DNA from: Schmidtea polychroa
Lineage: Eukaryota
Assembly (NCBI GenBank): GCA_044892525.1
Contig: CM097885.1
Span: 35,714,001-35,778,000 of the forward strand
Reading direction: 5' to 3'
DNA length: 64,000 nucleotides
The notes under the pieces were generated by a model, which ran no database searches, had not been told where the DNA came from, and saw only the letters and a program-made list of their open reading frames with translations. The number at the start of each line of letters is the position of its first letter. The stretch's first letter is position 1. Made by a program: the position numbers and the translations under genes. Shown piece after piece: positions 2,477-60,984 of the stretch.

Positions 2477-3337
2477 ATGCAAACAAACACAAACGACCCC
2501 TTTCGACAAAAAAACACCACATCAACGAACGACAACACTAACCCTCATATCAACCCATTTTCCATAAATTCTATTATTAACCCAAAACAGAACATTCCAA
2601 ACTGCTTCACGGACGAAAATAGAACCCCGCGAAAATGACTAGACTTCGCAAAATTAGCTTTAACACTATCAGGCGTAAAGTTGACAAAAACCTTATGTTA
2701 AAAAATAATCACAGCCCTCCCCAGCAACAAACTCAATGAAATTGCAGACCAAGTAGATGAAATCTCAAAAAGTGAGGACCCTTATGACAAACTATGTCAC
2801 ATACTAATATCAAAAAACAAAAGACAAATGTTGGAGTCCTGCTTAAACAACACACAATTAGGGGACAATAAACCTTCCGATTTCCTCAGACAACTAAAGC
2901 ATAAATTGGAGCAACCAAATATCACCAGTTCAGGATCAAACGAAATGGTTAAAAAATTATTCCTGCGCGCTATGCCACAAGAAATACGATTAATCTTAGC
3001 CGCAAATTACAAGGCAGACATAGAAACACTAGCAGAAATAGCAGATCAAATCAACGAAGAAATTAACCCCACAATCTACAGCACCCAAAAACAGTACAAA
3101 AACCAATTATACCGCAACGAACAAACAACAAACAATAAGAACAAAAATTCCGAAATAAAAGAATTCATAACCAACCTCATGAGCTCACTGATCCGCAAAT
3201 TCGATGAAGTAATGATGGAAAACAAACAAATTAAACGTGAACTCGCCGAAATAAAAGAAAAAACCCAAAGACAACCGTCCACCAAACTATTATATCAGAA
3301 ATCGGTCAGATTCACGAAACTGGAAAAACAAAATTAA
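2477..3337 (+). pseudogene. Gypsy gag (degenerate)
   Basis: DPYDKLCHIL...LNNTQLGDNKPSDFLRQL...KKLFLRAMPQEIRLILAA...LAEIADQI, typical of CsRn1/Mag-type Gag. Upstream part has stops. Confidence 0.8.
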
Positions 3338-3397: not shown

Positions 3398-3686
3398 GTG
3401 CAACTACAAAACACAGGAAAACTGATGAAGTCGCCATTAATCGCACCGACATTTGGCGACAAAAACAAAACATTCACGGTGCATTCACAAAAAAGCAATT
3501 TCCTGATTGATACAGGTTCCATCATCTCCCTATTAACCCACAAAATGTTCAAAAACCTAAAAACAACAAACGACAAACTTAACGCAGCTAACGGTACCAA
3601 CATAAGTAGATTCGGACAATACACTACGACAATAACAATCAACAACAAAGAATACAGCTGGTCGTTTACTATAGCCGAGGTACAAC
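3398..3686 (+). pseudogene. Gypsy aspartic protease, 5' part (cut by the Polinton)
   Basis: FLIDTGSIISLL active-site motif, LNAANGTNI, and WSFTIAEVQ, which continues as QPIIGADFL after 17180. Confidence 0.9.
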
Positions 3687-3950
3687 AGTGGATGAATGGC
3701 CTTCACGGACCCAACCCTCCCTAGCCTCCAACCCCAAGACTCTTCCCACCCATACTAAAAAACTAAACTTTTTCATCTTTTAACCCCTATTTTACATCTT
3801 TTATTCATAAAAACCCTCAAATACACGAACCCAACCCTCCAACCCAACCAAGGAAACAAAGTGATTGAAGTGGGAAACTTGAAAAGGGTAATCTCCGTGA
3901 AGGCCATTCATCCACTACTCTAAAATATAAAAAATTTAAATCTTAAAAAC
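3687..3950 (+). repeat. Polinton left TIR (~265 bp)
   Basis: Reverse complement of 16906-17174, with only a few substitutions and indels. Confidence 0.95.
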
Positions 3951-3971
3951 CTCATAAAATATATTTAAAAA

Positions 3972-5262
3972 ATGAACAACACAAATCTCAAAATTCAAAA
4001 TAAAAATAAATTAAATCTTGATTACAATAAAGAGTTTATGCAAGAAATAAAAAAAATTGATATTTTAAAAATATCACCAACTTCAGGATCTATTGCAAAC
4101 TTAAATCGTTCAGGTGATATAATTTTTCAATCTCTTCAAACATCATACCCTATAGATATTTGTAATGCTAAATTATATTATAAAATTGAATTAGAAATTG
4201 AACCAAACAAAGATATAACTCTAGAAAACAATTTCTTTCCAAATTTATTCAACAACATGAGATTAAAACTAGGATCATCAGAAATTGAAACTGTTTTGCA
4301 TCCGGGGGTATATTCTACAATGTTAAATTTTGTTTTGACTGGTTGTGATTATAAAAATGAATATGGTGAATTAGCAGGTTGGATTCCTGATGTTAATAAA
4401 GGGGATTTAGACAAAGATGGTTTAGATATAAATTATGGTTACCATAAAAGAGTTGAACTTTATAAATCTAAAAAATTTGAAGGTTATTTTGAACTAAAAT
4501 ACTTATTTGGATTCCTTCAAAACTATAACCATATACTTCATAATGATTTTATAGAATTAGTTTGTAATAGACTAGAAGGTGATAAAAGATTGTTCTATGG
4601 AGGTGTAGATACAAAAGCTAAATTAAAATTAAAAACACTTGAATTACATATACCCGAATGGACATTAAACCCACATTCTGAAATCAAACTCCTTGAAAGA
4701 TTAAATTCCAACAAATCTATAAATGTAAATTATTTAAATAGAATATGTGGTGAATTTAGTATGACAGAGGGTTCAACATATTCTATAAAGGTAGCAAATT
4801 TAGCATACCGACCAAGATATATCTTGATTGGATTCAAAGAAACAGATTCATCTTTCCAAAAAAATAACAACTGTTTATTCAAAAGATTGGAAATGATAAT
4901 TTAAAAACAATACAAATTCAATTAAATAGTTCTTATTATCCAATAAATTGAATGGAATTTAATATTGAAAATAATGAAAACATATTCCCATATCTAAATT
5001 ATATTGAAACATGTTATGATTTGAACCACAATTAAGTTTAGAAGATTTCAAAAATGTATATTCTATATTTTGTATAAATGTTTCTGATCAAGATGATGAC
5101 CTTGCTATAAATAATGTTGATGTTACACTTCATATAACAAAGGATTCTAATTTTAAAGCTAAAATATATACATTAATATTAGAAGAAAAGAAAATAGAAA
5201 GGAAATTATATGGTGGAAAGATTTCAATAATTGAAAATGTACGAGGTGATGCACAAAATTAA
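3972..5262 (+). pseudogene. Polinton major capsid protein (double jelly-roll, PY/hexon), disrupted near the C-terminus
   Basis: 310-aa ORF (LNRSGDIIF, LENNFFPNLFNNMRLKLG, ELKYLFGFLQNY, RPRYILIGF). It continues after a frameshift at ~4875 as LKTIQIQLNSSYYP...YSIFCINVSDQ, with a further stop and frameshift, to TAA at 5260-5262. Confidence 0.85.
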
Positions 5263-5279
5263 AAATATCTCTATATAAA

Positions 5280-6731
5280 ATGTCTCTAAATAAATCCTAT
5301 TATTGACGTGAAATTTGTAATTGTCAAGTTACAAGACATCATAAAGCAAGCCATGTTAAAACTAAAAAACATATACTTAGATCTAAACTAGCAATAAAGA
5401 CCTTAGAACCCAATTCTTCAAGTAGATTTATTTTTGAGAATCAACTCTTTGAGAATCAACTCTTTGAGGGTGGTGACCTACAATCTTCAAAAACAACATC
5501 CACAATATTGAAACCCTTTACTACTGAAAAATATCCAGGTGAAAGACATTTATTTAAACACAACTATACTGGACCAGGAACACGTCTAGATATTAGATTA
5601 GATGAAAATAATAATCCTAAACAAGGAGAAGAACCAATAAATAGAATTGATCAAGCAGCTTTAAAACATGATATTGCTTACAATTCAACAAATCTTAGAG
5701 ATAGACACATTGCTGATGTGAATTTAATACATGATTTAAATAATATCCAAAACCCATCAACCCAAGAAAAGATTCAAAGAGCTCTAGTTAAATTAGCAAT
5801 GAAAGGTAAGATTTTCTTTGGCTCAGGACTTCTTAGAATAGCAAAAGATGTTGCTAATAAAAAGATTATTCAGCAAGCAGACACTGAGAATCAACTCTCT
5901 GATTCTACAAATTTACAAACCCCAACAGAATCGCAAATAAAATATGCCAACGAATTACACCATGAATTTAGAAAAAATAAAAAATATTTAAAAGTTCAAG
6001 TACATGAAAAAGATCAAACATGGTCTGCTGATTTAGTCTTTATGCCAACCAAATCATCAGACCCTGAAAAATATAAAATAATTTTAACAGTAATAGATTT
6101 ATATACAAGATTTGCTTTTGCAAGATGTTTAGAAACCAAAACAGGATATTCTATTACAGAAGCATTTGAAAATATATTTGAAGAAAATCAAAGAATCCCA
6201 AAATATTTATGGTGTGATAAAGGAACAGAATTTTACAACAAAGTTTTTACAAAGTTTTTAAATGAAAATGATATTAAATTATATTCAACAGAAAACGAAG
6301 GAAAAGCAGTTGTAGTTGAAAGATTAAATAGAACATTAAAAAATAAAATGTGGAAATATTTTACTGCTATTGGAAAACAAAAATGGAACAATGAATTGTT
6401 ACAAAAGATTGTAAATGAATATAATAATGATGTACATAGTTCTATAAAATCAACACCTTTAAATGCTTCCTTGAATCCTTTAAAACTTATGAATCCTGAA
6501 ACCGTTAAAGTGGTAAATGAAAAACCAAAGTTTAAAATTGGCGACCGAGTAAGAATATTTAAATATAAAAATAAATTTGAAAAAGGATTCACAGCAAAAT
6601 GGACAAATGAAATTTTTATTATAAATAAAATACATTATACAATTCCAATAACATATAGCATCATTGATTTAAATAATGAAAAAATATTAGGTAGATTTTA
6701 TAATAATGAACTACAGAAAACAGATTTCTAA
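5280..6731 (+). CDS. Zn-finger / parvovirus-type phospholipase A2 / retroviral-like (rve) integrase fusion; one TGA at 5304
   Basis: PLA2 Ca loop HNYTGPGT and catalytic DQAALKHDIAY. Integrase DDE motifs WSADLVFM, LWCDKGTEF, VERLNRTLK. ATG 5280 is in the same frame and gives YY*REICNC...HVKTKKH. Confidence 0.92.
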
Positions 6732-6735
6732 CCCC

Positions 6736-7520
6736 TTAAAATAAACTTTTCCATATTTCAGTCTCTTCTCTATCCAAATAAATATAATTATATTTTTCTT
6801 TCCAATGATTATCAACAAACATATCAAACATGTGCTTATCAGGTTCAACATTTGAAAATAAATCACTATAAATCATATTCTTATCACGCTTATCTAATTT
6901 AAAAAATATAAAACAATTAGAATTATTTCTTATAGAGTTTTTATCTAAAGCATAATAAGTTTGAGATATATAAATAACATTACAATTATTATGTCTCCCT
7001 CGTGTAAAATAACTCTTTTGAATCTCTTGATTTTTCATATTAACAACATCATCAAATATAACTAGATTCTTTTTATCTTTAGGAAGTAAATCACAATGTA
7101 AAACATCTTCAGGTTTATTAGAGAATAAAACTTGAATTGCCTCACCTTCATAGATTAATCATTTTTATTAATAATATCTGATTCTAAAATCTTTTTCTTA
7201 TACCAATCAATCATATCACAAGGCTGAAAAACCTCTTCAGGACATCTATGTTGATTTTTAAAAATATCAATTATGGCTTTTTTAGTTAATTTATTTTCAA
7301 ATCCACATTTCAAAAGTTGTAATTCTGGTTGATTTATGGTCGTAGAATAAAAGATTAAATTATTATAATCTAAAAAACCATCTTCAAGCAACATTCTCAA
7401 AAGAAGTACATTCTTACCACATCCAGAAGAACTAACAATTAATAATCTAAAATTATCAGGAAATAATTTATTATTAAATTTAGATTTATGTCGAGTTAAA
7501 ATTGGTTTCCAAATATCCAT
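6736..7520 (-). pseudogene. A32/FtsK-like DNA packaging ATPase (frameshift at ~7155)
   Basis: Walker A region LLIVSSSGCGKN, Walker B KNLVIFDDV (~7045-7075), and FTRGRHNNCNVIYISQ...IRNN motif. Confidence 0.9.
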
Positions 7521-7536
7521 TTTTATTTATTATAAA

Positions 7537-8063
7537 ATGACAACTGAAGTATCTTTACAAGAATTAATAAATTCAATTAAAATTAATCAGTTGTAATCGA
7601 TGGTAAAAAATATTTTATTGGAAAACATGTAAAAGAACAAGTTAAAGAGAAACTAAAGGAGCAAGCTAAAGAAGGTGGTATTCTTCCTCTAGCAGCTTTA
7701 ATACCTGCAATCATTGCAGGTTTATCAGGTGCTGCTGGAATAGCTGGAGGAATTGCAACTACAGTTCAAAAAGCTAAAGAATCTCAAAAGACAGACCTAG
7801 AAAAAGAAAAATTACAAACTGAAATTGATTCAATGAAAAAGAAGGGTAAGGGGTTATATCTCAATCCTTATAAAGGTAGAGGTTTAAATGATTTTTTAAA
7901 AAATCAAATTTCTACATCTAAATCTTTATCTTCAAAAGATAAAGATGATTTAAAAAAAATATGTAAATCTTTAAAGAATGGATGTGTTTGTAAACTTAAA
8001 AATGGTAAAGGATTGTATTTAAAACCTTGGAAGGAACAAGAAAATGGTATAAATTTAAATTGA
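7537..8063 (+). CDS. Adenovirus pX/mu-like core or membrane-active protein (frameshift at ~7590)
   Basis: The frame upstream of the 76-aa ORF reads KEGGILPLAALIPAIIAGLSGAAGIAGGIA, similar to adenovirus pX (RGGILPLLIPLIAAAIGA). It is followed by repeated GKGLYLxP motifs. Confidence 0.7.
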
Positions 8064-8085
8064 TAGTATTTTATATACTATAAAA

Positions 8086-8854
8086 ATGGTATACGAAGAA
8101 AGATTAGCACTTTTAAAAAAAATTACAATCAGAAAAAGACATCTATAATAAAAAAGATACGGCTCAACACACCGAATCTATAATATTAAATGAGGTAATG
8201 ACGCAACAACAACAACCAACAATTAAAGCTATAAAAGGATTAGAATCTCTAAAATCTAAAGAGTTGGAAGATAAAAAACAACAAAAAGAATTGGAGTGGC
8301 ATGAAGATGAAATGATTTTAAAACCTCTTAAAGTTGATCCTAAAATTAGAGAGGGTTTAAGTGATTCAATTAGACCCATATTTAATACTAATGCTAAAGG
8401 ATATACAATAATAACAATTAATAAACAAAACTTTACTTTATTATATACATCTTCAGAAGATAAACCACGTTTTCGTTCACAAAATCTTTATAATAATGAA
8501 TACTTAGACTTTGAATTTACAGATGATTTTTATAGATTAATTTGTGGATATCCTTCAGATGATATTAAAAAAATTGAAAAATATTTAAATTTAATAAAAT
8601 TAGTAGGTGGTAGTTCAAAAGCAAAATATATTCAAGATTTAAAGAATTATTTAAATAAAAATGAAAGGGGTTATATTGTTAAAGAAGGTGAGGGATTAAA
8701 CCCAATCAATCTTTTTATTGAATTAAGAAAACTATTAGCAGCTAAAAAAGCAGGACATAATAATTTAGATTCTGATATTTTAAAGATTTCTAAAGAATTA
8801 TTAAAACAAGGAATAATTTCAAAAGATAAATTTAATAAATATATAAATGACTAG
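8086..8854 (+). CDS. Conserved Polinton protein (PZ-like); probable 5' frameshift
   Basis: C-terminal ELRKLLAAKKAGHNN...ISKELLKQGII motif, recalled from Polinton proteins next to the protease. TATAAAAATG at 8086; main ORF 8198-8854. Confidence 0.55.
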
Positions 8855-9350
8855 TCCTCCGAAGGCAGTTCCGAAGGTTTTCTCAATATTAGATTTTTTA
8901 AAAACATTTGGAATAAATACAAAAACAAATTTTGATTTAAAAGATTATGCAGACTATTTAAATTTAAAAATTAAAATATTAATGAATGATGAATTATCGA
9001 GTTTGAAAGGTTCGAAGATCAAAGACACAAAGGTTCGAAGATCAGTGAATAATATAATAATTAATTATCAAGATTCAAATGAAAAGGGATCTCATTGGGT
9101 TTGTATATATAATAAATCTATGGACGAAGTCCCACTATACTTTGATTCTTTTGGGATTAAACCCACTAAAGAAGTAGAAGACTATCTTGAAAAAAATTAT
9201 ACTTTTAATTCTTTACAAGTTCAACCTAATAATACTAAAATATGTGGTATTACAAGTTTATATGTTTTGTATAGATTGAATAATTCAAAAGGGGATGGTT
9301 TTGAATCTATAATCCAAGAAATTTATAATAATCTAAAGTCTCTATTATAA
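8847..9350 (+). CDS. Adenain-like cysteine maturation protease
   Basis: IINYQDSNEKGSHWVC (His), YFDSFG (Asp), QVQPNNTKICG (Gln, Cys). Confidence 0.92.
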   Translation: MTSPPKAVPKVFSILDFLKTFGINTKTNFDLKDYADYLNLKIKILMNDELSSLKGSKIKDTKVRRSVNNIIINYQDSNEKGSHWVCIYNKSMDEVPLYFDSFGIKPTKEVEDYLEKNYTFNSLQVQPNNTKICGITSLYVLYRLNNSKGDGFESIIQEIYNNLKSLL

Positions 9351-9380
9351 CTATAAAAAAATGGAAGATAATTTAAAAAA

Positions 9381-10127
9381 ATGGTAAACATAATGTCAGA
9401 TAAATATTCAAGAAGTTTATTAATAAATTCAAATGAATCAAATTTTACTATAAATTTTGAAGATTCAATAAATTTAGATCAAAATTTAAATTATGAATTA
9501 GGACTCTTGTGGTTTAGCTGTTTTAATACTATTTTTAATATAAATATTAATAATAATAAATTTACTATAGTTAAGAGGGATATTAACCCCAAGACAATGA
9601 AAAATAGTGTATTTGAAGAACACGACACTATAACAATCGAACCAGGATTATATGAATTAATGGATTTAGCTAAAACAATTCTAAAAGAAACAAATGGAAA
9701 TGTAGAAATAAAAGTAGATATTCAAACTTCAAAATGTATTACAACTTTAAAAAATGTTGGACTTGCTGTTACTATTTCTAGTTTCTTTCATACTATTTTA
9801 GGTTTTGAAGTCAGAGAATATCCACCATCAACTATTAAATCTAAAAATATTATACAAATAACAAATATAAATTCTATAAATATAGAGTGTGATTGTATAA
9901 TGGGATCATACAATAATGGTAAACATGCAAATATTTTATATTCCTTTCCTTCCAATGTTGTTCGAGTTGGATATAAAATTGTTGAAAGAATGAACCCCCC
10001 AAACTACTTACCTTTATGTAGAAAAAACATAATGAATATTAGTTTTAGAATTGTTGATGAAAATGGAGAATTAATTAATTTTAATGGAGAAAAGATTTCA
10101 ATGTGTTTACATTTGAAACAAGTCTAG
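9381..10127 (+). CDS. Polinton minor capsid protein (penton, PX)
   Basis: FTINFEDSINL..YELGL, INIECDCIMGSYNNG..ILYSF, YLPL..ISFRIVDENGELINFNGEKI..LHLK. The true start may be ATG 9361 with a 1-nt slip in an A run. Confidence 0.85.
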   Translation: MVNIMSDKYSRSLLINSNESNFTINFEDSINLDQNLNYELGLLWFSCFNTIFNININNNKFTIVKRDINPKTMKNSVFEEHDTITIEPGLYELMDLAKTILKETNGNVEIKVDIQTSKCITTLKNVGLAVTISSFFHTILGFEVREYPPSTIKSKNIIQITNINSINIECDCIMGSYNNGKHANILYSFPSNVVRVGYKIVERMNPPNYLPLCRKNIMNISFRIVDENGELINFNGEKISMCLHLKQV

Positions 10128-10145
10128 ATTTTTATTACTATAAAA

Positions 10146-11081
10146 ATGAATTATAATAATTTTAATAAGTTGGGATTATATAATGATGGATTAAAAGATG
10201 AAGATGTTATATCTCTTACAGAAAAAAGATTTGTTAATGAAAAAGGAGATTCAATGAAGGGTGATTTAATTTTAAATGGACACCAGATAAAAGAATTATC
10301 TTCTCCAATTAATGATTTTGATGCAACTAATAAAATATATGTAGATGTAGTTGTTAAAAATTATACTGATTTAACAACAACAAGAATTGATTCAATGGAA
10401 TCCAAATTTAATAAATTACAAACCCAATTAAATGAAGAAGCTAAAAAGATAGCCAAAGAAAAAAATAAAAGACTTGTGGATAAACAACTTATGGATAATA
10501 AAATTAATACAATATATAATATAATAAATGAGATGATTACATCGTTTAATAAAAGATTTGTTAAATTAGAGTCTCATACAACACACATTAACACAACACA
10601 CACTATTAGAAAAAGAGCGGCTGAATTAGAACAGAATAATATATTATTACCCAATGCATATAAACATTTTATAGAATCAACTTTAATAATAACAAATAGT
10701 AAAGAATGGTCTTGTTTTATGGTTGAAAAGATTATTGATCCTTATTTCTTTTTATTTAATGATGATGATGAAACAATGAAATGGTTTGTTAAATGTGATT
10801 ATAATAGTAAGTTTGAAAAGGGTGATGTTATAATAACTGGTTATGATTTACCACATGGACATTGGCATGATAATACTGATTCATATAAAACACATAAAGT
10901 TAAAAGTAAGAATATTATTTTTAAAAGCACACTTGTGCATTATATAGATTTAATATTTTATGAAAAAAAGGTTGATGTTGATCAAGTTCGTAAAGCGTTG
11001 TATAAAGACATTCTCTCAACAAGAATTTCTTATGATATGCGAGTGTTGGTACCAGATAATAAAGTCTTGTTGAGAGTTTAA
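10146..11081 (+). CDS. Putative fibre/spike protein
   Basis: GDSMKGDLILNGHQIKEL..P....DATNKIYVD fibre-type motif, then a coiled coil and a globular C-terminus. Lies directly after the penton gene. Confidence 0.55.
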   Translation: MNYNNFNKLGLYNDGLKDEDVISLTEKRFVNEKGDSMKGDLILNGHQIKELSSPINDFDATNKIYVDVVVKNYTDLTTTRIDSMESKFNKLQTQLNEEAKKIAKEKNKRLVDKQLMDNKINTIYNIINEMITSFNKRFVKLESHTTHINTTHTIRKRAAELEQNNILLPNAYKHFIESTLIITNSKEWSCFMVEKIIDPYFFLFNDDDETMKWFVKCDYNSKFEKGDVIITGYDLPHGHWHDNTDSYKTHKVKSKNIIFKSTLVHYIDLIFYEKKVDVDQVRKALYKDILSTRISYDMRVLVPDNKVLLRV

Positions 11082-11098
11082 GTTTTTTTATTATTAAA

Positions 11099-11698
11099 AT
11101 GGAAGTACGAAGTCCAGAAGTAAGAGAAAAAAATATTTATCCAGAAATATGGAATCAAGATTTTAAGAATCAAAAACCATCAGCTCCTACAGAACTTGAA
11201 GTCATGAGAGTAAAAGAATTTAAATCAGAGACTTTACATTTACAAGATTTGTTGAAACATTATAAAAAAATTAAAAAAAGATGGAATAAAGGGAATACAG
11301 CTTTAAAGATTATAGGTTATTCTTTAGGATTTACATCTGCAATACTTACAATTGTTTTACCTATAACTTTACCAGTTGTTACTCTTGCACCTGTAATACT
11401 TGGAAGTATTTCTGTAGCAGATACTTTCTTGACTGAAATGGTTTCTTTATCTTATACTTCAAAAAAGAAAAGTTTATATCGTGAAGTTTGTTTGATAATA
11501 GAATTAGGAATCTCTAAATTATTTTTATTTCAACTAAAAGCATTGGAAGATGGAATCTTGACTGATGATGAAATAATGAAATCAAACCAAATAATAAGGG
11601 ATATTAAAAATGAAGTTATAAAGTTGAAAACTGCAAAGGTTAAAAGTAATGAATATTCTAAAAAAATACAACGAGAGAAATGGTTAAAAACGAATTAG
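11099..11698 (+). CDS. Polinton membrane protein with a hydrophobic hairpin and PSAP motif
   Basis: Hydrophobic stretch IIGYSLGFTSAILTIVLPITLPVVTLAPVILGSISV; KALEDGILTDDE; N-terminal IYPEI and PSAP. Confidence 0.65.
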   Translation: MEVRSPEVREKNIYPEIWNQDFKNQKPSAPTELEVMRVKEFKSETLHLQDLLKHYKKIKKRWNKGNTALKIIGYSLGFTSAILTIVLPITLPVVTLAPVILGSISVADTFLTEMVSLSYTSKKKSLYREVCLIIELGISKLFLFQLKALEDGILTDDEIMKSNQIIRDIKNEVIKLKTAKVKSNEYSKKIQREKWLKTN

Positions 11699-11988
11699 TC
11701 AATATTTTAAAAATAAAAAATGGATGAAATTGAAAAAGAAATAAAGTCTTTAATGGACTCTAGGTTGATGGATTTCAAGAGTTTATCACTTGAGGATAAA
11801 ATTAAATTTGGAGAAAAGTATTATATAATTTGTCTTCAAATAATTCAAATAATTATCATAATGATTCAAACCCAAACTATTTAAATGACTTCAAATTATT
11901 AAGTATACAAGATCAAATTGAAAAAGGAGAATATTATTTTGCCTTATTCCCACAACTAATTAAAAAATAAAAAAATAAACATATAAAA

Positions 11989-12441
11989 ATGGATGTCTTT
12001 ATAAAAAAAGTTGAACAACTTTCAGTAGTTGATCCTTCAATATTAAATAAGATTCAACAAAAAGAGAAAGCTTTTGAGTTTGCTAAAGTTAAGAGTGAAA
12101 ATCCTACTTTTTCTCAATCTCAAATTTGTAAAATGATTGGTACTTCAGACTCGACGATGAGAAGAATTAGAAAAGATTTAGGAATTGATTCCCCTTATAG
12201 GCATACAGCTAAAAAGAAGGTTTTAGAAAAAAAGGCTTTTTATTGTACAGATTGTTCAAGTAATGTATCTTCTCAAAATCATAAATGTATCAAGTCTATG
12301 AAATATAAAAGAAATGATCGTATGGCTTCTGGGACAGTAACCTCTGGGATTGATGTAGAAAATTTTTTAGATCAACAACCTTCAACCACTAGGATATTTA
12401 GCAAGTGGGGAGAAGAAAATAAAACCTTAATAAATGAATGA
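11989..12441 (+). CDS. Helix-turn-helix DNA-binding protein with a CxxC..HxC motif
   Basis: ENPTFSQSQICKMIGTSDSTMRRIRKDLG has an HTH pattern; FYCTDC...NHKC follows. Preceded by TATAAAAATG. Confidence 0.65.
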   Translation: MDVFIKKVEQLSVVDPSILNKIQQKEKAFEFAKVKSENPTFSQSQICKMIGTSDSTMRRIRKDLGIDSPYRHTAKKKVLEKKAFYCTDCSSNVSSQNHKCIKSMKYKRNDRMASGTVTSGIDVENFLDQQPSTTRIFSKWGEENKTLINE

Positions 12442-12727
12442 TCGTGTTTTAAGGTTGATAAGAAGTAATCCTATTATTAAAAAGGAATCAAGTCTTGCAT
12501 TAAAAGAATATGATGAGAAATCTCCAAAGGATAAAGCCTTGCATGCCATGCAACTTGCTATTAGAGAGCCTGTGTTACTTTGGATTATAAATGATGTTGA
12601 GATTGAAAGAGATTATCTAAAAAAAGAGTTGATAAAAATATCTAATGAGATTAAAGCTAGAAAGACTTCAGCCAAGGTAGAGCAAGAGAAAATAAAAGAG
12701 CAAGTAAAAAAGATGTTAAAACTGTGA
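12434..12727 (+). CDS. Polinton hypothetical coiled-coil protein (97 aa)
   Basis: Overlaps the stop of the previous gene and starts with TAAATG. Confidence 0.5.
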   Translation: MNDRVLRLIRSNPIIKKESSLALKEYDEKSPKDKALHAMQLAIREPVLLWIINDVEIERDYLKKELIKISNEIKARKTSAKVEQEKIKEQVKKMLKL

Positions 12728-12881
12728 AAGAAAAAATTTTTATTATTGAAGTAGATGGTTTATTTTTTAATTTATACAAACCTTTAATAATATCAATTAA
12801 TAGTGTTTTGGATAAAAGTATTTTGTCGTCAGTTAAGGACTTTAGGTTTTCAAATATTGATTTTAAAGGTATTTCAGTCAT
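12657..12881 (-). CDS. Small Polinton protein with a C-terminal hydrophobic helix
   Basis: Starts with TAAAAATG like the other viral genes. Tail IFSFTVLTSFLLALLFSLALPWL. Confidence 0.4.
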   Translation of the reverse strand: MTEIPLKSIFENLKSLTDDKILLSKTLLIDIIKGLYKLKNKPSTSIIKIFSFTVLTSFLLALLFSLALPWLKSF

Positions 12882-12908
12882 TTTTAAATTACTATTTTAA
12901 AATTTTCA

Positions 12909-12960
12909 GAGGCCTTCAGCCATCAGTCAGCAGTTTCAATCATGGATGACTGAAGGTCTC
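12909..12960. terminator. 16-bp stem hairpin just downstream of the pPolB stop
   Basis: GAGGCCTTCAGCCATC ... GATGACTGAAGGTCTC, 14/16 Watson-Crick pairs, in an AT-rich intergenic gap. Function is inferred. Confidence 0.45.
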
Positions 12961-12969
12961 AATAATATG

Positions 12970-15900
12970 TTATTGTTGATTGATCATGAAACTATCTGTA
13001 TATAAATATTTAGATTCTATGTTTATAGTGTCTAAAATATGATTATTCATATTTATAGGATATTGTTCTATATCTAATTCTAAATATTCATTTCGACTTT
13101 TTGGGTAGAGTATTCGAACTTCATACAGTTGAAGATCTGTTATGTTTGTATTATATAATTCATTCAAGATCTTTAAATTTTTTATATGTGGAATCATGTC
13201 ATTACCAATTGGGAGTGTCTTTTTTAGATCTGATAAAATATACCTCTTATCATCATAATTAGATAATGATATTTTATTCGATTCCTCTAAATACATGTTG
13301 TGTTTCTCAGATTTAAGTTGATGTACTTTTACCATTTTATCTGGTTGATTTTTATTTAGAATATCCTTATAGTCTTGATGTGGTATATTCCTAGAAACTG
13401 ATTTCTGTATACCTTTATTTTTGTTGTCTTTAGATGTTTTAAGTTTTGGAGGTATTAATACTGGTATGTCAAATGTTTGATCCATAATTCTAATTGAATG
13501 TTTTTCTATCTTTAGAGCATCAATCATTTCTAGTGAATATTGTTTAGCCCTAATAAAGACAGCATCAATTATTGGAGTATTTGGTTTTTCATCTTTAAAG
13601 GTGAATAATTCTCCAGATGAATTTATTAAATTGCTTAGGATTTCATTTTCAGATATTTCCTCTTTTAGGTTTTTAGTATATATTTTTAAAAACATGCTGT
13701 CTGTATCCATAGCATGCATAGATATTCTACCCTTAAAATGTGGTAGTAGAATATCATAATAGGTTTCATACATTTGTAGTTTTGATAATTATAAAATGCT
13801 GAAACCTATAAAGATTGGTTTGTTATAAGTCTTTTCACCATTTTTTAGTTCAACAGCTATTAGGTTCTCTGAAAAGACTTCCGCATTTTTAAATGTAGGT
13901 TTTGAAAGCATTCTGTTATATCTTGCAAAATCCTTTGGGCTATTTGTCAACAACTCTACTCGAGTATATTTATCAACATTTTCCATGGTTTTCCCAAAGA
14001 CTGAATTATTTAAAAGCTTATAAATCATGTCTAGGAAAGCATTTCCATTTCTTTTTGCTTCATTCCTAGATTGGATATTTCCCTCTATAAACTTTTTCAT
14101 AAATGGTCTTTGGGAAAACTTTATTATAGAATGGATATTTTTTATTTTCATCCCATGAGAAAGATAAAACTTCAACAACCTATAGTGACAAAGATAATAA
14201 GTTTTATCAGTTTGATCACATAAAAGTTTTGTTGTTGTTGGTCTATCTTGTTGGGATGATAATTCATTGGAATCTACTTTCCTTTTTACTGGAGCAAAAT
14301 GAAAGTATCTAGTAACATATTTTATATCATCGGGGTATTCTAAATCACATTCTATTATATATCCCACTTCTGAATCTTTTTCTGTTGATAATATTTGATT
14401 CATGAGTTTTCTTAGCGAAGTCCCCTTGGGGATATTTATGTATTCAAAGTTTCCAATTGGTAAATATTGAGTCATTACTCCTGAATATAGAGCAGTTGCA
14501 TCAATATACATTATTTCTGATGGATTATTTAAACTCTCCATTATTAATTCAAAATCCTGATCTGTTTTTATTTCTACACCACATGCTTCAGGATCTTCAC
14601 TAAAGAATTTCTTATAGAGGGATAGGAAGTTGTTTGCAGTTATATGTCTATTCCCCATTACGGAACTAACACCTCCTCTAATATTTTCTTTAAGTACATT
14701 AAACATGTCGAGTTCAGTTAATAGTTCTATAACCCCTTTTCTTTAGTCCACATAGTATATATTATATACTATGTGGACTAAAGAAAAGGGGGTTATAGAA
14801 CTATTAACTGAACTCGACATGTTTAATGTACTTAAAGGTCGATCGCGATCTACCGGTAGATCGCGAAGGATTTTTTAGTAGATCTTCATAAAAAAAATAT
14901 TTTTTATATAAATTTAGATTTTATATAAAATTTCTGTTTTATGCTTAAATTTTTTGCCAATTTTCATGTTCTGTGTTCCATTTCTATGGTAATACTAAAT
15001 AACATTTTTTAATTTTGATTTCACCATTTCCAAAATGTTATTTAGTTTAATTTAGTTTAATTAATATTATGTAAGTATTAAAAAAGTAGATCGCATACAC
15101 ATTTTGGATGTGAATGTAGCTCTCCTAGAAAAATTAGTGGGCACCCCTGGTATATAATAATATATCCCAAGCTAGAGATGGGGATGTTATGTAGTTGTAG
15201 GGTTTTAATTCAAATGCCTTGCAAAACCCTTCGAAGCAGTCTGCAAGTATATAAACATCTAGGGATAAATACATGTCAGTATATTCCACAATGTTTTTAC
15301 AGGAGAATAATTCCCACATTTTATTCCCTCGATTATATTCCTGATCACTTATATCTGTTTGATTTAATGTTGAAAAGAATTCCTCTTTCCCTGGTAATTC
15401 TATTTTATTATATCTATCAAATGAGTTGATGTAATCATAAGGATAGATTCTCTTTGCTAAACAGGTTTTATATTCCTCCTGGGGAATATTATTTTTTACT
15501 AATACTTTTTCTATTGTGTGCTTAAAGTCTTCAGGTTTCATAGTCTTTGCTATTCCATCCAAGGACATTGATAGAAAGTTTAGGGAATCTATAAACTTCA
15601 GTCGTCCATATTGAATACATTTATATTTTTCTTTTGTTAGTCCTATGACTTTAAAGGAGTTTTTAGCATTTGCTGCTAAATGCTTTATGAATAGGTGGAT
15701 GTCATATCCAAAAAGATTATGGAATATGACTGGTACAAATGTGGGTTTTCTACAATTTATATTACAGTTGTTATGTGCTGCACCCCTAAAGTTATTTACT
15801 TTTTTAAAGTGATCATGATCAGGAATTTTTCCTTCAGTAAGTGTTTGTTTACACATCCAACAAGTTGTTGCGTTTTCATATTCTTCCCATTGTTGTTCTG

Positions 15901-16869
15901 AAAAGTTTATCCTTTTGGATATATTAATTCATTTTTATATTGCTTATATTTTGTAGGTCTTTCATTATGATTTTCTTGAGGATGTAAGTGTGCTAGTATT
16001 GACCATTGGAAACATTTATTATCCTTATTTCGAATATTTATAATGTGAATAGAAGTAAAGGGGGTAGGGATATATGATTTAGGGTTTGGAGGTGCTCCTC
16101 TCCAATATTCAATTTCAAGTGATTGAAATGAAAGGAATTTTAGGTTTGAGTCTCCTAATTCTTGTTCAACCACTCTATGCTCTTCTCCAACTTTATGAAT
16201 AATATCTTTAATTGTTTTTTTAAATCCCTTGGTTGAGAATAAATAATTATAAGATGTTTCAATAATACGGTCTAGGACTGTTGTGTTTACATCTTCCCCC
16301 CTCCAATATCTTGAGTGGATTCTAATTTTATATTTAATAACATTGAATCTTGATTTACCAAATTTTTTTATAGCATCTTCCATTGATTTTTTTATGTTTT
16401 GTTTATTTCTTTTTATATACTCTAAAGATGAAGAGGATATAAATGGTTGTTCAAATTTATCTACATGGTTAAAGTTATCCCAATTATATTTTTCTTTTTC
16501 AATATGTTCTTCATCTTCTTCTTCTTCTTCTTCTCTAACTTTTATATCTTCTTCTTCAGGGTCTTCAGGATCTCTTTTAACAATAGCACATTGTTTTAAA
16601 TGTTTTAAATAATAAGATTATGTGGTGAGTTTTAATCTACATATAGGACATTCAAATTCTTTTCTATTTCTTTTAACCCCAATACAGTTTTTAAAATGGT
16701 TATCATATCCTAAAAGTAAATATTTTTCTTTACATTTAGGACAAAGTTTTGAGTTTGTATCATTTAGTCCAACTGTCTTTAATAAATGCTCTTTGGATTT
16801 TTGGTGTGATATTAGTGCTCTTCTATTTTTAAAATTTTTATTGCATATTTCAAAGTTGTTAATATTCAT
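12970..16869 (-). pseudogene. Protein-primed family B DNA polymerase with N-terminal Zn fingers, TP-like region and Endonuclease VII domain; disrupted
   Basis: NIRNKDNKCFQWSILA; EndoVII DHDH..FRGAAHNNCN; exonuclease FHNLFGYD, FIDS, YPYDY, LDVYILAD; polymerase IRGG, YIDATALY, KLLNNSVFGK, MDTDS, KQY, KGI. Stops at 16618 and 13789, frameshift at ~15910, insertion at 14762-15149. Confidence 0.95.
14838..15149. mobile_element. hAT (Charlie/SPIN-like) MITE inside pPolB, left TIR missing
   Basis: Right end GTGGGCACCCCTG, followed by GTATATAA. The left flank ends in GTATATA. Subterminal palindrome GATCGCGATCTACCGGTAGATCGCG. Confidence 0.75.
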
Positions 16870-16905
16870 TTTTTAAAAAAATTTTTTATTGGGTATGCTA
16901 TTTTA

Positions 16906-17174
16906 GTTTTTAAAATTTAAATTTTTTATATTTTAGAGTAGTGGATGAATGGCCTTCACGGAGATTACCCTTTTCAAGTTTCCCACTTCAATCACTTTGT
17001 TTCCTTGGTTGGGTTGGAGGGTTGGGTTCGTGTATTTGAGGGTTTTTATGAATAAAAGATGTAAATATAGGGGGTTAAAAGATGAAAAAGTTTAGTTTTT
17101 TAGTATGGATGGGAAGAGTCTTGGGGTTGGAGGCTAGGGAGGGTTGGGTCCGTGAAGGCCATTCATCCACTACT
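16906..17174 (-). repeat. Polinton right TIR
   Basis: Inverted match to 3687-3950; ends ...CATTCATCCACTACT, followed by the TSD. Confidence 0.95.
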
Positions 17175-18204
17175 TACAACAACCAATAATCGGTGCCGAT
17201 TTCTTAACACACTATAACTTACTCGTAGACTGTAGAAACAAAGACTTAGTCGAAAACCCCATCACAAAAACGAAAACAAAACTATCAACAACCAATTACT
17301 TTCCACAAATTGACAATGGAGTAATACAAACTAACCCAACCAATAAAAAAGAAACAATCAATCATAACACTCTAAAGTTAGACAACTAGACCCCAAAAAA
17401 ACCAGAAATCACTAAAGAAATATTTAAAGAACTACTCGACAACAAAATAGTAAGACATTCAAACTCAAAATGGTCTTCCGCACTCATGCTCAAATAAAAG
17501 GCTAATGGGGAATGGAGAGCTTGCGGCGACTACAGAATGCTAAACAAAATCACAGAAGCAGACAATTACACCCTGCCAATAATACGAGATATTATCAACA
17601 GATTAAAAGGGGCAAAGTTCTTCTCAAAAATAGACCTCCAAAAGGCTTACCACCAAATTCCAATCAGGAAAGAAGACATTAAAAAACAGTCATCGTAACA
17701 CCAATTGGCATGTTCGAATAAAACAGAATGCCTTTCGGTTTACGGAATGCAGCTGCAACATTCCAACTCTTCATGGATCAAACCCTAAAAAACAACCAAA
17801 ACACAATCTCATACCTAGACGACATATTGATAGCAAGCTCAAATAAAGAAACACAACTAAACGATGTCGAGAAACTTTTTCAAAACTTCGATACTGAAAA
17901 TCTAAAGATTAACATCCAGAAATGTGAATTCTTTAAAAAGGAAATTGATTTCATAGGACACACATTAAACGAAAGAGGGACAAAACCAATATAAAATAGA
18001 ATAAATACAATACAACAATTCAAACTACCAAACACGATCAGAGAACTAAGACGGTTTTTGGGAATGGTAAACTTTTACCACGCATACATACCAAACTGTA
18101 GCGAAATATTAGCCCCTTTAAGCGAACTAATTAAAACAAAAAGGAATATGAAAATCGACTGGACAGAAAAAACGATCAGAAATTTCGAAATAGCTAAAGA
18201 CAGC
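17175..18204 (+). pseudogene. Gypsy protease C-terminus and reverse transcriptase (degenerate)
   Basis: QPIIGADFL; GEWRACGDYRMLN; FSKIDLQKAYHQI; MPFGLRNAAATFQ; YLDDILIAS; LRRFLGMVNFY. Confidence 0.93.
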
Positions 18205-28403: not shown

Positions 28404-29073
28404 CAGCTATGTTCAACCTGCGGCCCGTGGGCCGCTAGCGGCCCATTCAATAATTTTGTGCGGCCCGTTTTGTATAAATATTTATTGTAATGAAATATCA
28501 AATATAAACTTTTATTGTAGTAAAATATCACATGTGCGTTCAAAATTTTTTTTAATGTGTATTTATTTATTTTTTTATACAAAAAAAACGGTTACTTTTA
28601 AGATTTTTTTTTTAGTTTTTGCAAATGGAGTAAATAGATCTCCAGTCATCTTCTGAATTAAAATATATGTTTGAAGCCAATGATAAAGTTCAGTTTTATA
28701 AAAAATACATATGCAATGATAAATTTCCTAATCTAAGAAAACTAGCGATAAGCGTTACAGCTGCAATGGGGATCACGTATCTTTGCGAATCTTTTTTTTC
28801 GAAATTAAAGATTGTTAAATGTAAAAGTCGTAATAGATTAACTGATGAAAATTTAAAAAACCAATTACGATGTGCAACTTCCAAAATACCTGTGGACATA
28901 AAAAATTTATCTGAAAAAATTGAAAAACAAGTTTCACATTAAGTAATATGTATGTATATGTAAAACATAATTTAGTTTGTAAAAATTTTTTATAATAAAT
29001 AAATACGTGCGGCCCACATTATATTTTTATTTTTTATTTTGGCCCAGTAGCCAATTTCGGTTGGACACCACTG
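28404..29073 (+). mobile_element. hAT (SPIN/GTF2IRD2-like) internal-deletion derivative
   Basis: CAGCTATGTTCAACC..GGTTGGACACCACTG termini and 8-bp TSD CCCTAGAC. Encodes FPNLRKLA..TYLCESFFSKLKIVK..RNRLTDENL. Near-identical to parts of 39168-40403. Confidence 0.92.
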
Positions 29074-29644
29074 CCCTAGACAATGTTATTTAAAAATACA
29101 AAACAATTAATTATTTAATTAAAATACAAGTATCAATTTAATTATTATACAAAATTCTCTAGCTTGAATGGCATGAGGCGGGAATAAAATAATTTAAATT
29201 TTTTGGGGTCTTCAGCTTTTAGGAGCTTGGTAACTAAATTTAGAAAATTAATTATGAAGGACTAGCCCTATAGTGGTCGAATAAATTTAGCTGATAAGAA
29301 ACAACTCAATAGTGTAGAAAAGAGCAACTGACAAAGTCAAAGAAAATGTATTCAGAGAAATAGTATTAAAATCAAATCAGATTCGTTGAAATGAGGTGGT
29401 TTCTCGTGGGTTAGGGTTATTCAGGGGTCATACTAAGAATCAAACGTTGCATTCAGTTTTGAGGATTGAACTGTTTCGATTAGTGTAATAAAAATTAAAC
29501 CTATTATGTTAGGTTTGTCATTTCAATGAGGGCACGAGAAATGAAATTAAAATACATTTCCTACCGAAGAAACAATAATAACTCAATTATTTTATATAAT
29601 TATGTTATTATTTTCATTTTCACCATCCATTGAAACTTTTTGTT

Positions 29645-39150: not shown

Positions 39151-39167
39151 ATGGTAACTCCGCATGC

Positions 39168-40403
39168 GACCCATTCAATAATTTTGTGCGGCCCGTTTTG
39201 TATAATTATTTATTGTAATGAAATATCAAATATAAATTTTTATTGTAGTAAAATATCACATGTGCGTTCAAAATTTTTTTAATGTGTATTTATTTATTTT
39301 TTTATACAAAAAAACGGTTACTTTTAAGATTTTTTTAAGTTTTAACACAAAAGAATTTATGTGCGCAAGTATTTGATATGAACCATGTGATGTCAGTCGT
39401 TATTAAAACAGTTAACGCAATAAAAAATAATTCCTTGAAACATTGTCAGTTTCAAGATTACCTTCAAGAACTAGAATCTGAGTACAGTGATTTGCTTTTT
39501 TATGCGAAAATTCGCTGGTTACGTCGTGGGAAATGTTTAGAAAGATTTTGGAATTTGAGAGCAGAGATTGGAATTTTTATGAATGAAAATGACCAAAATG
39601 TTCCTGAATTATATGATGTTTCCTTACAGATATTACTATGAAATTAAACGAACTGAATAGGCAGCTTCAAGGTGAAAACAAGTTGATCACAGACTGTTAT
39701 GGAAATATAAAAGCATTCATAACAAAACTGAAACTTTATGAAAGTCAATTAAAATCAAAAAGAAATCTGTCCACTTTACATTATTACATATATTTAATTG
39801 TGACAAAAAAGATTTTTCTAAATATGCACAAGAAATTACCAATTTACTACAAGAATTTCAGGAGAGATTTTCATATTTAAAGAAATATGAGAATATATTT
39901 AATATTTTCCTATGTCCATTTGACATTGTTGTGGAATCAGCTCCAACAAATTTGCAAATGGAGTTAATAGATCTCCAGTCATCTTCTGAATTAAAATATA
40001 TGTTTGAAGCCAATGATAAAGTTCAGTTTTATAAAAAAATACATATGCAATGATAAATTTCCTAATCTAAGAAAACTAGCGATAAGCGTTACAGCTGCAA
40101 TGGGGACCACGTATCTTTGCGAATCTTTTTTTTCAAAATTAAAGATTGTTAAATGTAAAAGTCGTAATAGATTAACTGATGAAAATTTAAAAAACCAATT
40201 ACGATGTGCAACTTCGAAAATACCTGTGAACATAAAAAAATTATCTGAAAACATTGAAAAACAAGTTTCACATTAAGTAATATGTATGTATATGTAAAAC
40301 ATAATTTAGTTTGTATAATTTTTTTATAATAAATAAATACGGCCCACATTATATTTTTAATTTTTATTTTGGCCCAGTAACCAATTTCGTTTGGACACCA
40401 CTG
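39168..40403 (+). mobile_element. hAT (SPIN/GTF2IRD2-like) element, 5' TIR lost, frameshifted transposase
   Basis: MNHVMSVVIKTVNAIK, IRWLRRGKCLERF, LNELNRQLQG, TYLCESFFS; right terminus TTGGACACCACTG, then TTCTAGAC. Confidence 0.9.
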
Positions 40404-42439
40404 TTCTAGACGAATTTCAAAGATTTATAGCTCATTCGATTCGTTACGATTTCCTCTACAAATTGCTAATATTGAATTACAATACAATAATTGCTAAAAA
40501 TCTTTATTTCTCATCAAACTTGTTGATTGATTTCATTCGATTCACATTAATATTCTCTATAAATTAATAATATCAATTTACAATAAATATTTGTTTAAAT
40601 TTCTATTTTTAAATTTTTAAACTTAAAAATTATAAAATATGCAAACTGACAATAATGATTTGTTAATACATGCTAAACTCTATATGTTCATGTCTAAAAT
40701 AATAACATCTTTAATATTTGTGTAAACATGATTAAGTGTACTTCATTTATATGTTGATGCCAATGTCTATTCTTTCAAGAAATTGTGGCAACGGAATCGA
40801 AAGTGCATTAAAACTAGCACTAAAACGAACTGCTAAGTTCTCTGGTAAACTGTTTCTGAAGAACGAATTCGTCAGTCTGTTCGGTTCTTTTTAAGAAATT
40901 TACATGAGCGTTCTGAATTTATCTGATTTAACTTCGATATTTTCAGAGGATTTCTATCAAATCTTTGTAAACCTAGATGTTGCCATTCACGGTGTTTTGC
41001 AAAATATTTTTTTCCAATGTTGAAAGTACTACTTTCAAAGTGATCATTTGGCCTAGATATTTTTCTAACTAATCTAATGTAGAATATGCGTTTCAAGTAC
41101 TGGAGCATCCACTTCCCCAATACATCTTTGTTGCATATCTATTCTTTTGATAGATCCTCGAACCTTTGCGTTGTCGTCTCCATTTCAGTCGCCTAGAAGG
41201 TTAATCAGTTTAGGTCCCCGTGATAGCTTGAAATTTTGCACAGTAAAATTCTGAATTTACTCTACTGATTATATCTTTTTTATTTTTCCATTACAAAAAA
41301 CAACAAAATGAACTAATTATTACTCCTCACGAAACAGCTCGACCAAGGCTGTTAATATTTTGTGGATCGCTAGTTTCTATTTTGAAAATAAAAGGATCAT
41401 ATTGGAATATCTTTTTATTTCATTAGCTATATGGATAAATATATATATATATATATATATATATTTATTTATTTATAATACTTTATATGAAAAAAATCTT
41501 CTTGTTATTTTTTTCTAATAAATTCAAATTTTCAGATTTTCTTTGATTTGGCCCTATATAGCCCTATTTTTATTAATTTTAATGATATTTTATGATTTTC
41601 ATGTTAAATCAAAAATAACGTGTAAAAAAATTTAAAATTTCTTCTTGACCGTGTTATTTCAAAATCGTGTAAAAAAGATTTTACTGTATTTTTAAATTCA
41701 AAGTGTTTTCCACAAAAATTCAATTTAGGAAAACTTCATTTTTTATGGCAAAATTGCACCTTTGGGGGAATAAAATATTTTGAGCCCGTCGCCCTCAAAG
41801 GGTTAAATTATATTATCATATTGTCGTAAAAAGAAAAGATTTTTGAAAATTGGATTTAAAATAACACATAAATGTGGATCTTTCGAATTTGTAGTCCCAG
41901 ACTCCGAACCAACAAAAAGAACATATGTAGAGGATATTTTCCAGTATGAAATAAAAAAAATACGTTAACAAATATGATAAGAAAAACATAATAAATCTCA
42001 TGAAGAAATAGATTATTTTCTAAGTAAAGTAATATGACAAAAAAAGTTTCAGGGAAAACATTTCTCTACAACTCCATTGAATTTTTACAATAGTGATCCA
42101 TTATAAATATTTTTTGTTTTAAAAATAAAAGTTTTGGGGGAATTTCAAAATGAAACATTTATCCCATACTATTAAATTGATTAAATTTTTTATTATTGTC
42201 ATTTGTGGAAAATTGCAAAAAAAGAAATTTTCCCTTTCTCCATCTGTCATTTGCGTGGTAATTTCTTCATGATAACAATAAATCAAACTATCAATCACGC
42301 TAATGCAATTGAATTAAAATATTTCTTCGAGCCTGTTTTGATGGGATTTATGAGTGTTAGGAATTTGGGAATAAATAATTTAATTCAGCATTTTATAAAT
42401 TTGAATGGGGATACTCTTTCTTGGAGGTTTAAGGTGCCT

Positions 42440-48991: not shown

Positions 48992-51016
<2,025 letters not shown>

Positions 51017-52924: not shown

Positions 52925-52925
52925 A

Positions 52926-52988
<63 letters not shown>
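52925..52988 (+). repeat. (AAT)n microsatellite right of the Penelope insertion
   Basis: Read directly from the sequence. Confidence 0.95.
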
Positions 52989-60719: not shown

Positions 60720-60984
60720 CTTTAAGTCATTCGCAATTGATAATGTTTTAATGGACAAAAATCTTTCATTTTGAAGAAAGTGTTTTCTGAAAAATAGATT
60801 ATCAAATCTGGGAAATAATATGCAAATATTGAAAATTAAATTGGCACCGGGATTAATTGATTGTCGGAAAATAAAAAAACAACTGAAAATATCAACTAAT
60901 TAATACATCTTTAATTCAATTTTTTTCAACAGTAAGAAATATTATAAGTAAAATTTTTTCTGATTTAAATTTTCTGATTAAAGC

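Follow-up and report, generated by a model that had tools for sequence, protein, structure and literature searches.

How Polintons enter cells and deliver their integrase is an open question, and no Polinton particle has been studied so far. The window analyzed here, a stretch of 64,000 nucleotides from Schmidtea polychroa (assembly GCA_044892525.1, contig CM097885.1, positions 35,714,001 to 35,778,000), raises this question in a specific form, as a Polinton in it encodes a phospholipase A2 (PLA2) together with an rve integrase in a single frame free of stops (5307-6731). A precursor of lipase and integrase that is cut at defined sites would make the delivery question testable. We ask whether the fusion is a real gene, whether its product could be taken apart by the element's own protease, and how lipase and integrase are joined in relatives.

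The fusion gene and its host element

The gene belongs to a Polinton/Maverick of the adintovirus type, a decayed copy of 13.5 kb (3687-17174, given without a strand, as are its terminal repeats) that is inserted in a Gypsy-like protease ORF. Two terminal inverted repeats (TIRs) of about 265 bp each (3687-3950 on the left and 16906-17174 on the right, the left one with 98.5% identity to 16906-17171 over 266 columns) are flanked by a 6-bp target duplication with identical bases at 3681-3686 and 17175-17180. The left end at 3687 is three terminal bases shorter than the right end, although the target duplication is perfect, and each TIR holds an inverted copy of its own terminal 23-26 bases about 210-240 bases inward (16937-16962 / 17149-17174; 3687-3709 / 3894-3919), so that each end could fold back on itself. 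Pfam profiles match a protein-primed B-family DNA polymerase (pPolB; PF03175, E 2.3e-10), a double jelly-roll capsid protein (PF21738) and an A32 packaging ATPase (PF04665), and penton and cysteine protease were recognized via similarity to ORFs of relatives. The protease and penton ORFs are open; the capsid, ATPase and pPolB genes are fragmented, and since the fusion gene also contains a stop, this copy must be regarded as dead. The element family is very abundant in the host, with 45,561 contigs of run X1 on 5.9 kb of the element, a figure that is not a copy number. At several genes, a TATAAA(A) or ATAA box is fused to the ATG (5272-5282, 7529-7538, 8840-8849, 10138-10148), which is a weak signal given the AT-rich DNA. 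Outside the Polinton, the window contains a Penelope-like element with reverse transcriptase and GIY-YIG domains in a near-perfect nested palindrome (49156-52933, arms 98-100% complementary), a non-coding repeat in two copies 11 kb apart (28432-29081 and 39160-40411, blocks 84-99% alike), and transposase remnants of the ISXO2-like, zf-BED/DUF4371 and Tc1-like types (44547-45473, 59327-60472 and 60887-62024, the last assigned by eye).

The first-pass annotation had described a single frame from 5280 that encodes a zinc finger, PLA2 and the integrase. PLA2 and rve indeed share the frame 5307-6731 on the + strand, and both domains are recognized by Pfam (PF08398 at 5547-5792, E 1.9e-9, above cut-off; PF00665, E 7.9e-12). 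However, the C2H2-like zinc-finger region in the 5' part of the gene (5280-5372, + strand) is incomplete in the window copy, and the frame opened by the ATG at 5280 meets a stop at codon 9 (5304-5306), so that this copy is unable to make the fusion from that start; the next Met is residue 174, past the PLA2 active site. An altered genetic code as the reason for the stop was considered and rejected, because the pX-like ORF of the element (see below) terminates in TGA and the breaks outside the fusion gene are frame changes or a TAA. In P0001 and P0124, the two closest relatives examined, the frame is open and the zinc-finger motif is complete. Both lack the 15-bp tandem duplication in the linker before PLA2 (5436-5465, + strand, units at 5436 and 5451), which is therefore apparently private to the window copy; the duplication had been noted before, and we found a third, 13-bp copy of the unit at 5886. 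The PLA2 domain is of the parvovirus type (5547-5813, + strand) and its predicted activity rests on an intact calcium loop and His-Asp-Tyr-Asp set, with YTGPG at 5565 and HDIAY at 5667, so that the YxGxG loop, HDxxY and the second Asp are all present. The rve (DDE) integrase with its C-terminal domain follows at 5940-6731 (+ strand), with D, D and E at 6030, 6216 and 6318. Intact PLA2 motifs and a DDE integrase that lacks a chromodomain had both been read from the sequence at first pass, and both observations hold: PF00385 did not match the window protein, which ends before the position where a chromodomain would be, whereas some fused relatives have one. The C-terminal pX-like domain of PLA2X-type proteins is absent from the window PLA2 protein, where the integrase takes this place and the pX-like match lies in the separate ORF 7587-8063.

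The expectation that similar fusions exist elsewhere was borne out by a domain search. It matched 546 proteins of similar length, the best 120 of which were aligned and profiled for both domains; with our own profiles, both were found in 117 of these 120, and two further fusions are labeled in the supplement of PMC11071296. Catalytic residues are kept almost throughout the best 120 (PLA2: H in 116, D in 115, Y in 117 and the second D in 117; integrase: D in 120, D in 120 and E in 119). A scan of viral contigs with the single window protein as query gave no match. As the window copy is broken in at least four genes, one could suspect that decay or misassembly had joined two neighboring genes by accident, but the relatives refute this reading, to which we give next to no credence. 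P0001 has 84% identity across the whole query and is fused in frame, and the window protein falls within a clade of 40 (support 0.989) that comprises 37 in-frame fusions and three members that are fragments or show no PLA2, with no split form among them, a count that leans to fusions as 33 rows came from the search for full-length proteins. The window junction, which is in frame and has no stable fold (z -0.84), does not show the split frames with a slippery site that mark a programmed frameshift. Its linker has a longest A-run of 5, and no junction indel is among the best-supported indels listed for four public runs, beyond which there are 43 more. That the PLA2-integrase fusion is real can thus be taken as practically certain.

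Structure prediction, which had been suggested as a check, yielded a model from 117 sequences with a mean pLDDT of 83.8. Its low-confidence residues 39-72 and 182-186, counted from the ATG, hold both of the glycine motifs discussed below, but the same model draws a continuous helix through the second motif, although pLDDT falls below 50 at residues 182-186. A prediction without alignment reached a pLDDT of 33 and was set aside. In a fold search, the model matched the integrases of foamy virus, mavirus and MELD virus; a PLA2 match was not seen among the matches listed, which the integrase dominated, and a sequence search of the PLA2 part against the PDB gave weak AAV capsid matches only (E 0.3).

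Glycine motifs as candidate protease sites

PLA2 is bounded by two glycine motifs, as had been noticed at first pass. Candidate cleavage site 1 is a Gly-Gly/Asp motif (5469-5477, + strand) within FEGG-D from 5463, where a cut is putative, and candidate site 2 is a Gly-Ser-Gly-Leu motif (5820-5831, + strand) within FFGSG-L from 5814, with a presumed cut and a presumed register. Among the best 120 relatives, site 1 has G in 94, G in 83 and D in 89, with a gap at the Gly columns in 21, and site 2 has the first G in all 120 and the second in 97. Adenovirus adenain cleaves at M/I/L-x-G-G/x and M/I/L-x-G-x/G, and the window sites resemble its substrates in having a GG or G-x-G core. At site 2, most relatives lack the M, I or L that the strict adenovirus consensus demands at P4; the residue there is K in 64, R in 19, A in 13, F in 7 and L in 7; in the window, P4 is F at both sites. 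Both window sites do fit, by sequence, the rule of the mavirus protease, GG/X or GX/G at a domain boundary: the consulted parts of the mavirus study describe cleavage at GG/X and GX/G and particles in which the integrase is found along with a lipase-like protein that has been cut (Born et al. 2018, PMC6048507).

The motifs recur in other proteins of the element, in agreement with the first-pass annotation, with five in the ORF of a pX-like core protein (7587-8063, + strand; weak Adeno_PX match, E 0.0094, below cut-off) and two in a PZ-like (Adintoc3-like) ORF that was recognized by a profile match to relatives (8117-8854, + strand). The pX-like ORF contains a GG-IL site, similar to that of adenovirus pX. 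When glycine motifs followed by a hydrophobic residue were counted in loci thinned to 70% identity and compared with shuffles, they were enriched in the PLA2 part (49 vs 14.6 ± 3.8, 3.4x), in pX-like proteins (42 vs 10.3, 4.1x) and in PZ-like proteins (21 vs 9.1, 2.3x). There was no enrichment in the integrase core (7 vs 11.3, 0.6x), penton (0 vs 4.9) or major capsid protein (12 vs 11.6, 1.0x), and the ATPase reached 1.5x. The motif is also enriched in pPolB (25 vs 12.1, 2.1x) and in a small SLATT-like set (5 vs 1.4, 3.5x), and all these counts are not independent, because conserved positions are inherited. A likely processing enzyme, judged from its sequence, is encoded by the open ORF 8847-9350 (+ strand), which has the H, D, Q and C motifs of an adenain-like cysteine protease and 31% identity (E 4e-18) to the protease ORF of locus L056; it had no Pfam match, and a PDB sequence search returned no protease match.

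Stand-alone PLA2X proteins are flanked by the same glycine motifs, and site 2 may therefore in part represent the end of the PLA2 fold. In relatives, the motif after PLA2 switches between GxG and GG at one place, and what follows it varies: among 150 cluster representatives from a PLA2-domain search, it was the integrase in 25, a short tail in 25, a pX-like domain in 1 and another sequence in 22, with 77 not scorable. A DUF5679-like zinc domain heads many PLA2 precursors. In locus L094, a stand-alone domain of this kind is followed by a long Lys-Ser repeat (2986-3282), a sequence that suggests a DNA-condensing core protein. The PLA2 fold does not explain the motif in a second type of fusion, in which the integrase follows the protease and there is no PLA2. 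This type was found in six proteins (L023, L030, P0494, P0495, P0502 and P0532) at two places in the tree, and in all six the linker that leads to the integrase contains GG or GxG, compared with 2 of 26 stand-alone proteases that have such a motif within their last 20 residues. All six are protease-integrase-chromodomain fusions (L023 at 4458-5957 and L030 at 7459-8925 among them), and in a viral contig the protease stands in front of PLA2 with an M-S-G-G linker (L092:2359-3369). PLA2X is joined in frame to the protease in some insect-type elements (L003:340-1371, L008:471-1535), and in others the two ORFs overlap (L004, L005, L006 and L009). The consulted part of the Buck et al. 2024 supplement (PMC11071296) has the label PLA2X-Adenain but no 'Adenain-Int' label.

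From these sequence comparisons and the analogy to mavirus, we infer a maturation by the element's protease at the glycine motifs that flank PLA2. The adenain-matured, packaged polyprotein of the first-pass annotation is supported in so far as the motifs are conserved, mavirus offers a precedent and the motif is present in protease-integrase fusions, but the strict adenovirus P4 preference is not seen at site 2. It appears rather probable to us that the product is a particle-core polyprotein that is packed and cut by the element's own protease. In working relatives, the zinc finger, PLA2 and the integrase would be translated late and as one chain, which would be packed with the DNA via its front part; the protease would then cut on either side of PLA2 and release lipase and integrase, the freed lipase would breach the endosome at entry, and the freed integrase would insert the incoming genome. 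The integrase would thereby be a passenger on a virion protein, like Pol on Gag.

A rather unlikely alternative to this cleavage model is that the fusion is packaged but functional uncut, or cut at the first site only, with Gly-x-Gly capping the final PLA2 helix and serving as a flexible hinge. Such a role would agree with the facts that the motif closes PLA2 in every context, even without an integrase behind it, that P4 for a GX/G cut is K or R in 83 of the 120 relatives, and that the linker past the motif can shrink to a single residue (L038). However, this leaves the linker motif of the six protease-integrase fusions unaccounted for, the alternation of GxG and GG affects exactly the two forms that the mavirus protease cuts according to the consulted parts of PMC6048507, and pLDDT drops at site 2. 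Still less probable, in our view, is a function inside the cell rather than in a particle, with an element that spreads as a transposon only and has retained its PLA2 part to scaffold the integrase or to anchor it to a membrane. The very high number of family copies in the host would suit such a mode of life, but the catalytic residues of PLA2 are kept in 115-117 of 120 relatives, the fused and -1 loci of at least 4 kb mostly carry capsid, penton, ATPase or protease genes, and the alternative partner of the integrase, the maturation protease, is also a virion protein.

Split relatives and the predicted -1 frameshift

How lipase and integrase are joined was compared at 91 loci that were selected by integrase score, a choice that favors unbroken integrases. 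Viral contigs contributed 11 of them, and the other 80 are the best of 508 in a metagenome scan (23 of 64 parts). The two domains are fused at 25 loci. At 20 loci there is no PLA2 (many of these loci are short, and two are protease fusions), at eight PLA2 is a separate gene on the opposite strand, and at 38 the integrase ORF comes immediately after a PLA2 ORF. Intact relatives with a stop separating the two domains had been named beforehand as evidence against a joint polyprotein, and such a stop is formally present at these 38 loci, but most of them are -1 overlaps without a usable Met: 30 overlap in the -1 frame (two of which, L002 and L066, are one contig), five are shifted by +1, and three have a same-frame stop. 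When grouped at 70% integrase identity, the 35 shifted loci fall into 11 clusters, and every cluster has a -1 member.

In 26 of the 30 -1 loci, the first Met of the integrase frame lies past the first catalytic Asp, and internal initiation would therefore yield a dead enzyme; the integrase has its own usable Met in four of the 30, as it does in the published AdintoBK012049. The overlaps without a usable Met fit a single polyprotein made by slippage better than two independent genes. The heptamer A-AAA-AAC, which is the gag-pro slip site of MMTV, occurs in slip phase 16 times among the 516 codons of the overlaps, compared with once among 13,363 other codons, for which synonymous shuffles predict 6.0 ± 2.1; within the overlaps its phase counts are 16:5:1, the 16 being those in slip phase, and A-AAA-AAN as a whole is under-represented elsewhere in the same genes. 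A canonical X-XXY-YYZ heptamer of some kind is present in 25 of the 30 -1 loci and A-AAA-AAC in 16, and four junctions have neither a canonical heptamer nor a similar scorable site (L001, L002 with its duplicate L066, and L056). The PLA2 stop comes immediately behind the heptamer in four loci. Nine of the 16 A-AAA-AAC junctions, but not the other seven, have a predicted downstream hairpin beyond synonymous shuffles (p <= 0.02), whereas none of 75 control windows falls below z -2 and none of nine -1 junctions with other heptamers has a hairpin. The hairpins begin about 5-8 nt past the heptamer and have three unrelated stem sequences. One stem is common to six loci, with 93.7% of cells paired and four pairs changed on both sides, which is weak covariation from six related sequences. 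The nine loci with heptamer and hairpin are spread over three parts of the tree, amid in-frame relatives.

A second class of junctions has runs of 7-9 A and no hairpin, and here -1, +1 and in-frame forms occur among close relatives (L015, L017, L080, L090; L074, L077, L078). A search with the split PLA2 of L056 matched 1,101 proteins, the best 120 of which gave 103 scorable ones; 96 of these end at most 20 residues past the glycine motif, nearly all with a lysine run, and Lys-Asn is present in only 6 of 97 short tails from these best 120 of 1,101 matches. In long-contig assemblies, split clusters of the long-A-run type have 350 and 205 members, compared with 365 and 88 in fused clusters, and the abundance of both forms fits homopolymer noise. 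Singleton clusters of fused DUF5679-type proteins do not show that the split form is the normal state, given the fused clusters of 365 and 88 members.

The split relatives might in general be unprogrammed, that is, in-frame fusions that gained or lost one A in a fragile A-run through decay, assembly error or transcriptional polymerase stutter, and overall we consider this explanation unlikely, with a clear difference between the two classes. It is likely for the long-A-run class, where neighboring relatives take all three frame states, no hairpin accompanies the nine junctions and both states are abundant in long-contig assemblies, and the choice of loci by integrase score would also enrich cases in which the integrase itself is unbroken. 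It is unlikely for junctions with A-AAA-AAC and a hairpin. There, fragile A-runs as such do not account for the breaks, since 40 other A/T runs of at least 6 in 30,969 nt of the same genes show only two further breaks, both in L082, and a random gain or loss would explain neither the phase bias of the heptamer and its avoidance elsewhere nor the regular spacing of three unrelated stems; furthermore, the context T-C-A6 is found in none of the 25 fused loci. Programmed -1 frameshifting is therefore, as far as the sequences tell, a strong likelihood for the A-AAA-AAC-plus-hairpin class, whereas it is doubtful for the long-A-run class, which may represent homopolymer noise, decay or polymerase stutter.

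Relation to known systems

The in-frame fusion has been labeled before, as 'PLA2-Integrase' in two elements, Adinto6405 and Adinto15303, in the supplementary file media-3.zip of Buck et al. 2024 (PMC11071296). These two proteins resemble that of the window in the order of GG motif, PLA2, GxG motif and integrase, in frame and without chromodomain, but they lack the N-terminal C2H2 finger. In the consulted part of the main text, the fusion is not discussed, and -1 frameshifts are proposed for penton and hexon-adenain only. In Adinto13074 of the same supplement, the integrase that comes after PLA2X is annotated to begin at a Met past the first catalytic Asp, which is the pattern of our -1 loci, and an adintovirus integrase in the sense of these authors has a C-terminal chromodomain, in contrast to the window integrase. 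A PLA2-integrase precursor, its cleavage or a frameshift at the junction was not found discussed in the portions consulted of the full-text literature, including PMC4061559, PMC12567637, PMC4584293, PMC11131425, PMC8097293, PMC12721341 and three preprints, a scope that left subscription papers and Repbase reports mostly outside; annotated genome maps in the supplements of PMC11071296, PMC8502044 or bioRxiv preprints could already show the frameshift. What is new here is the evidence for the integrase as a cleavable tail of virion proteins and for a likely frameshift in relatives.

PLA2 of Polintons has been regarded as the likely entry enzyme in the consulted parts of several studies (PMC3671162, PMC4642659, PMC5803895, PMC8502044), and those on Alpha adintoviruses and insect Mavericks propose that PLA2X is packaged and breaches the endosome (Starrett et al. 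2021, PMC8502044; Geisler 2018, PMC5803895; Yutin et al. 2015, PMC4642659). As far as these sources describe it, PLA2X shares with the window protein the parvovirus-type PLA2, the intact catalytic residues and the flanking glycine motifs, but in those elements the partner of PLA2 is the pX-like domain, and a separate gene encodes the integrase with a chromodomain, whereas in the window the partner of PLA2 is the integrase and the pX-like ORF is separate. Mavirus, in the consulted parts of Born et al. 2018 (PMC6048507), matches our proposal in its clan CE protease with GG/X and GX/G specificity and in particles that contain a processed lipase-like protein besides an rve integrase. It differs in that the integrase is a protein separate from the lipase, which is an alpha/beta hydrolase and has no relationship to PLA2.

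The chance is about even, in our estimation, that a large group of Polintons has reached a Gag-Pol strategy. The integrase would then always be the tail of a virion protein (PLA2 or the protease) instead of a gene of its own, it would be released at a glycine motif, and lineages would switch repeatedly between a fixed in-frame join and a programmed -1 frameshift (A-AAA-AAC and hairpin), which would set the ratio of lipase to integrase. The lineage of the window would have a fixed 1:1 join in frame, and other lineages would dose the integrase by a -1 frameshift or attach it to the protease. This strategy would explain how the integrase enters the particle, and also why many annotated Polinton integrases start past the first catalytic Asp. 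If the frameshift is real, a Gag-Pol-like control exists in a dsDNA virus-like element and new natural eukaryotic -1 signals can be added to those known; many Polinton integrases in databases would then be annotated without their first catalytic residue, and intact elements would have been miscounted as decayed. In retroviruses, the integrase enters the particle as the tail of a structural precursor, Gag-Pol, from which the viral protease frees it, and in some lineages this precursor is made when ribosomes shift to the -1 frame on a slippery heptamer that has a structure behind it. Unlike retroviruses, however, the window-type element has a dsDNA genome, a jelly-roll capsid, a cysteine instead of an aspartic protease, no reverse transcriptase and a lipase as the carrier, and the likeness is therefore one of analogy and not of membership.
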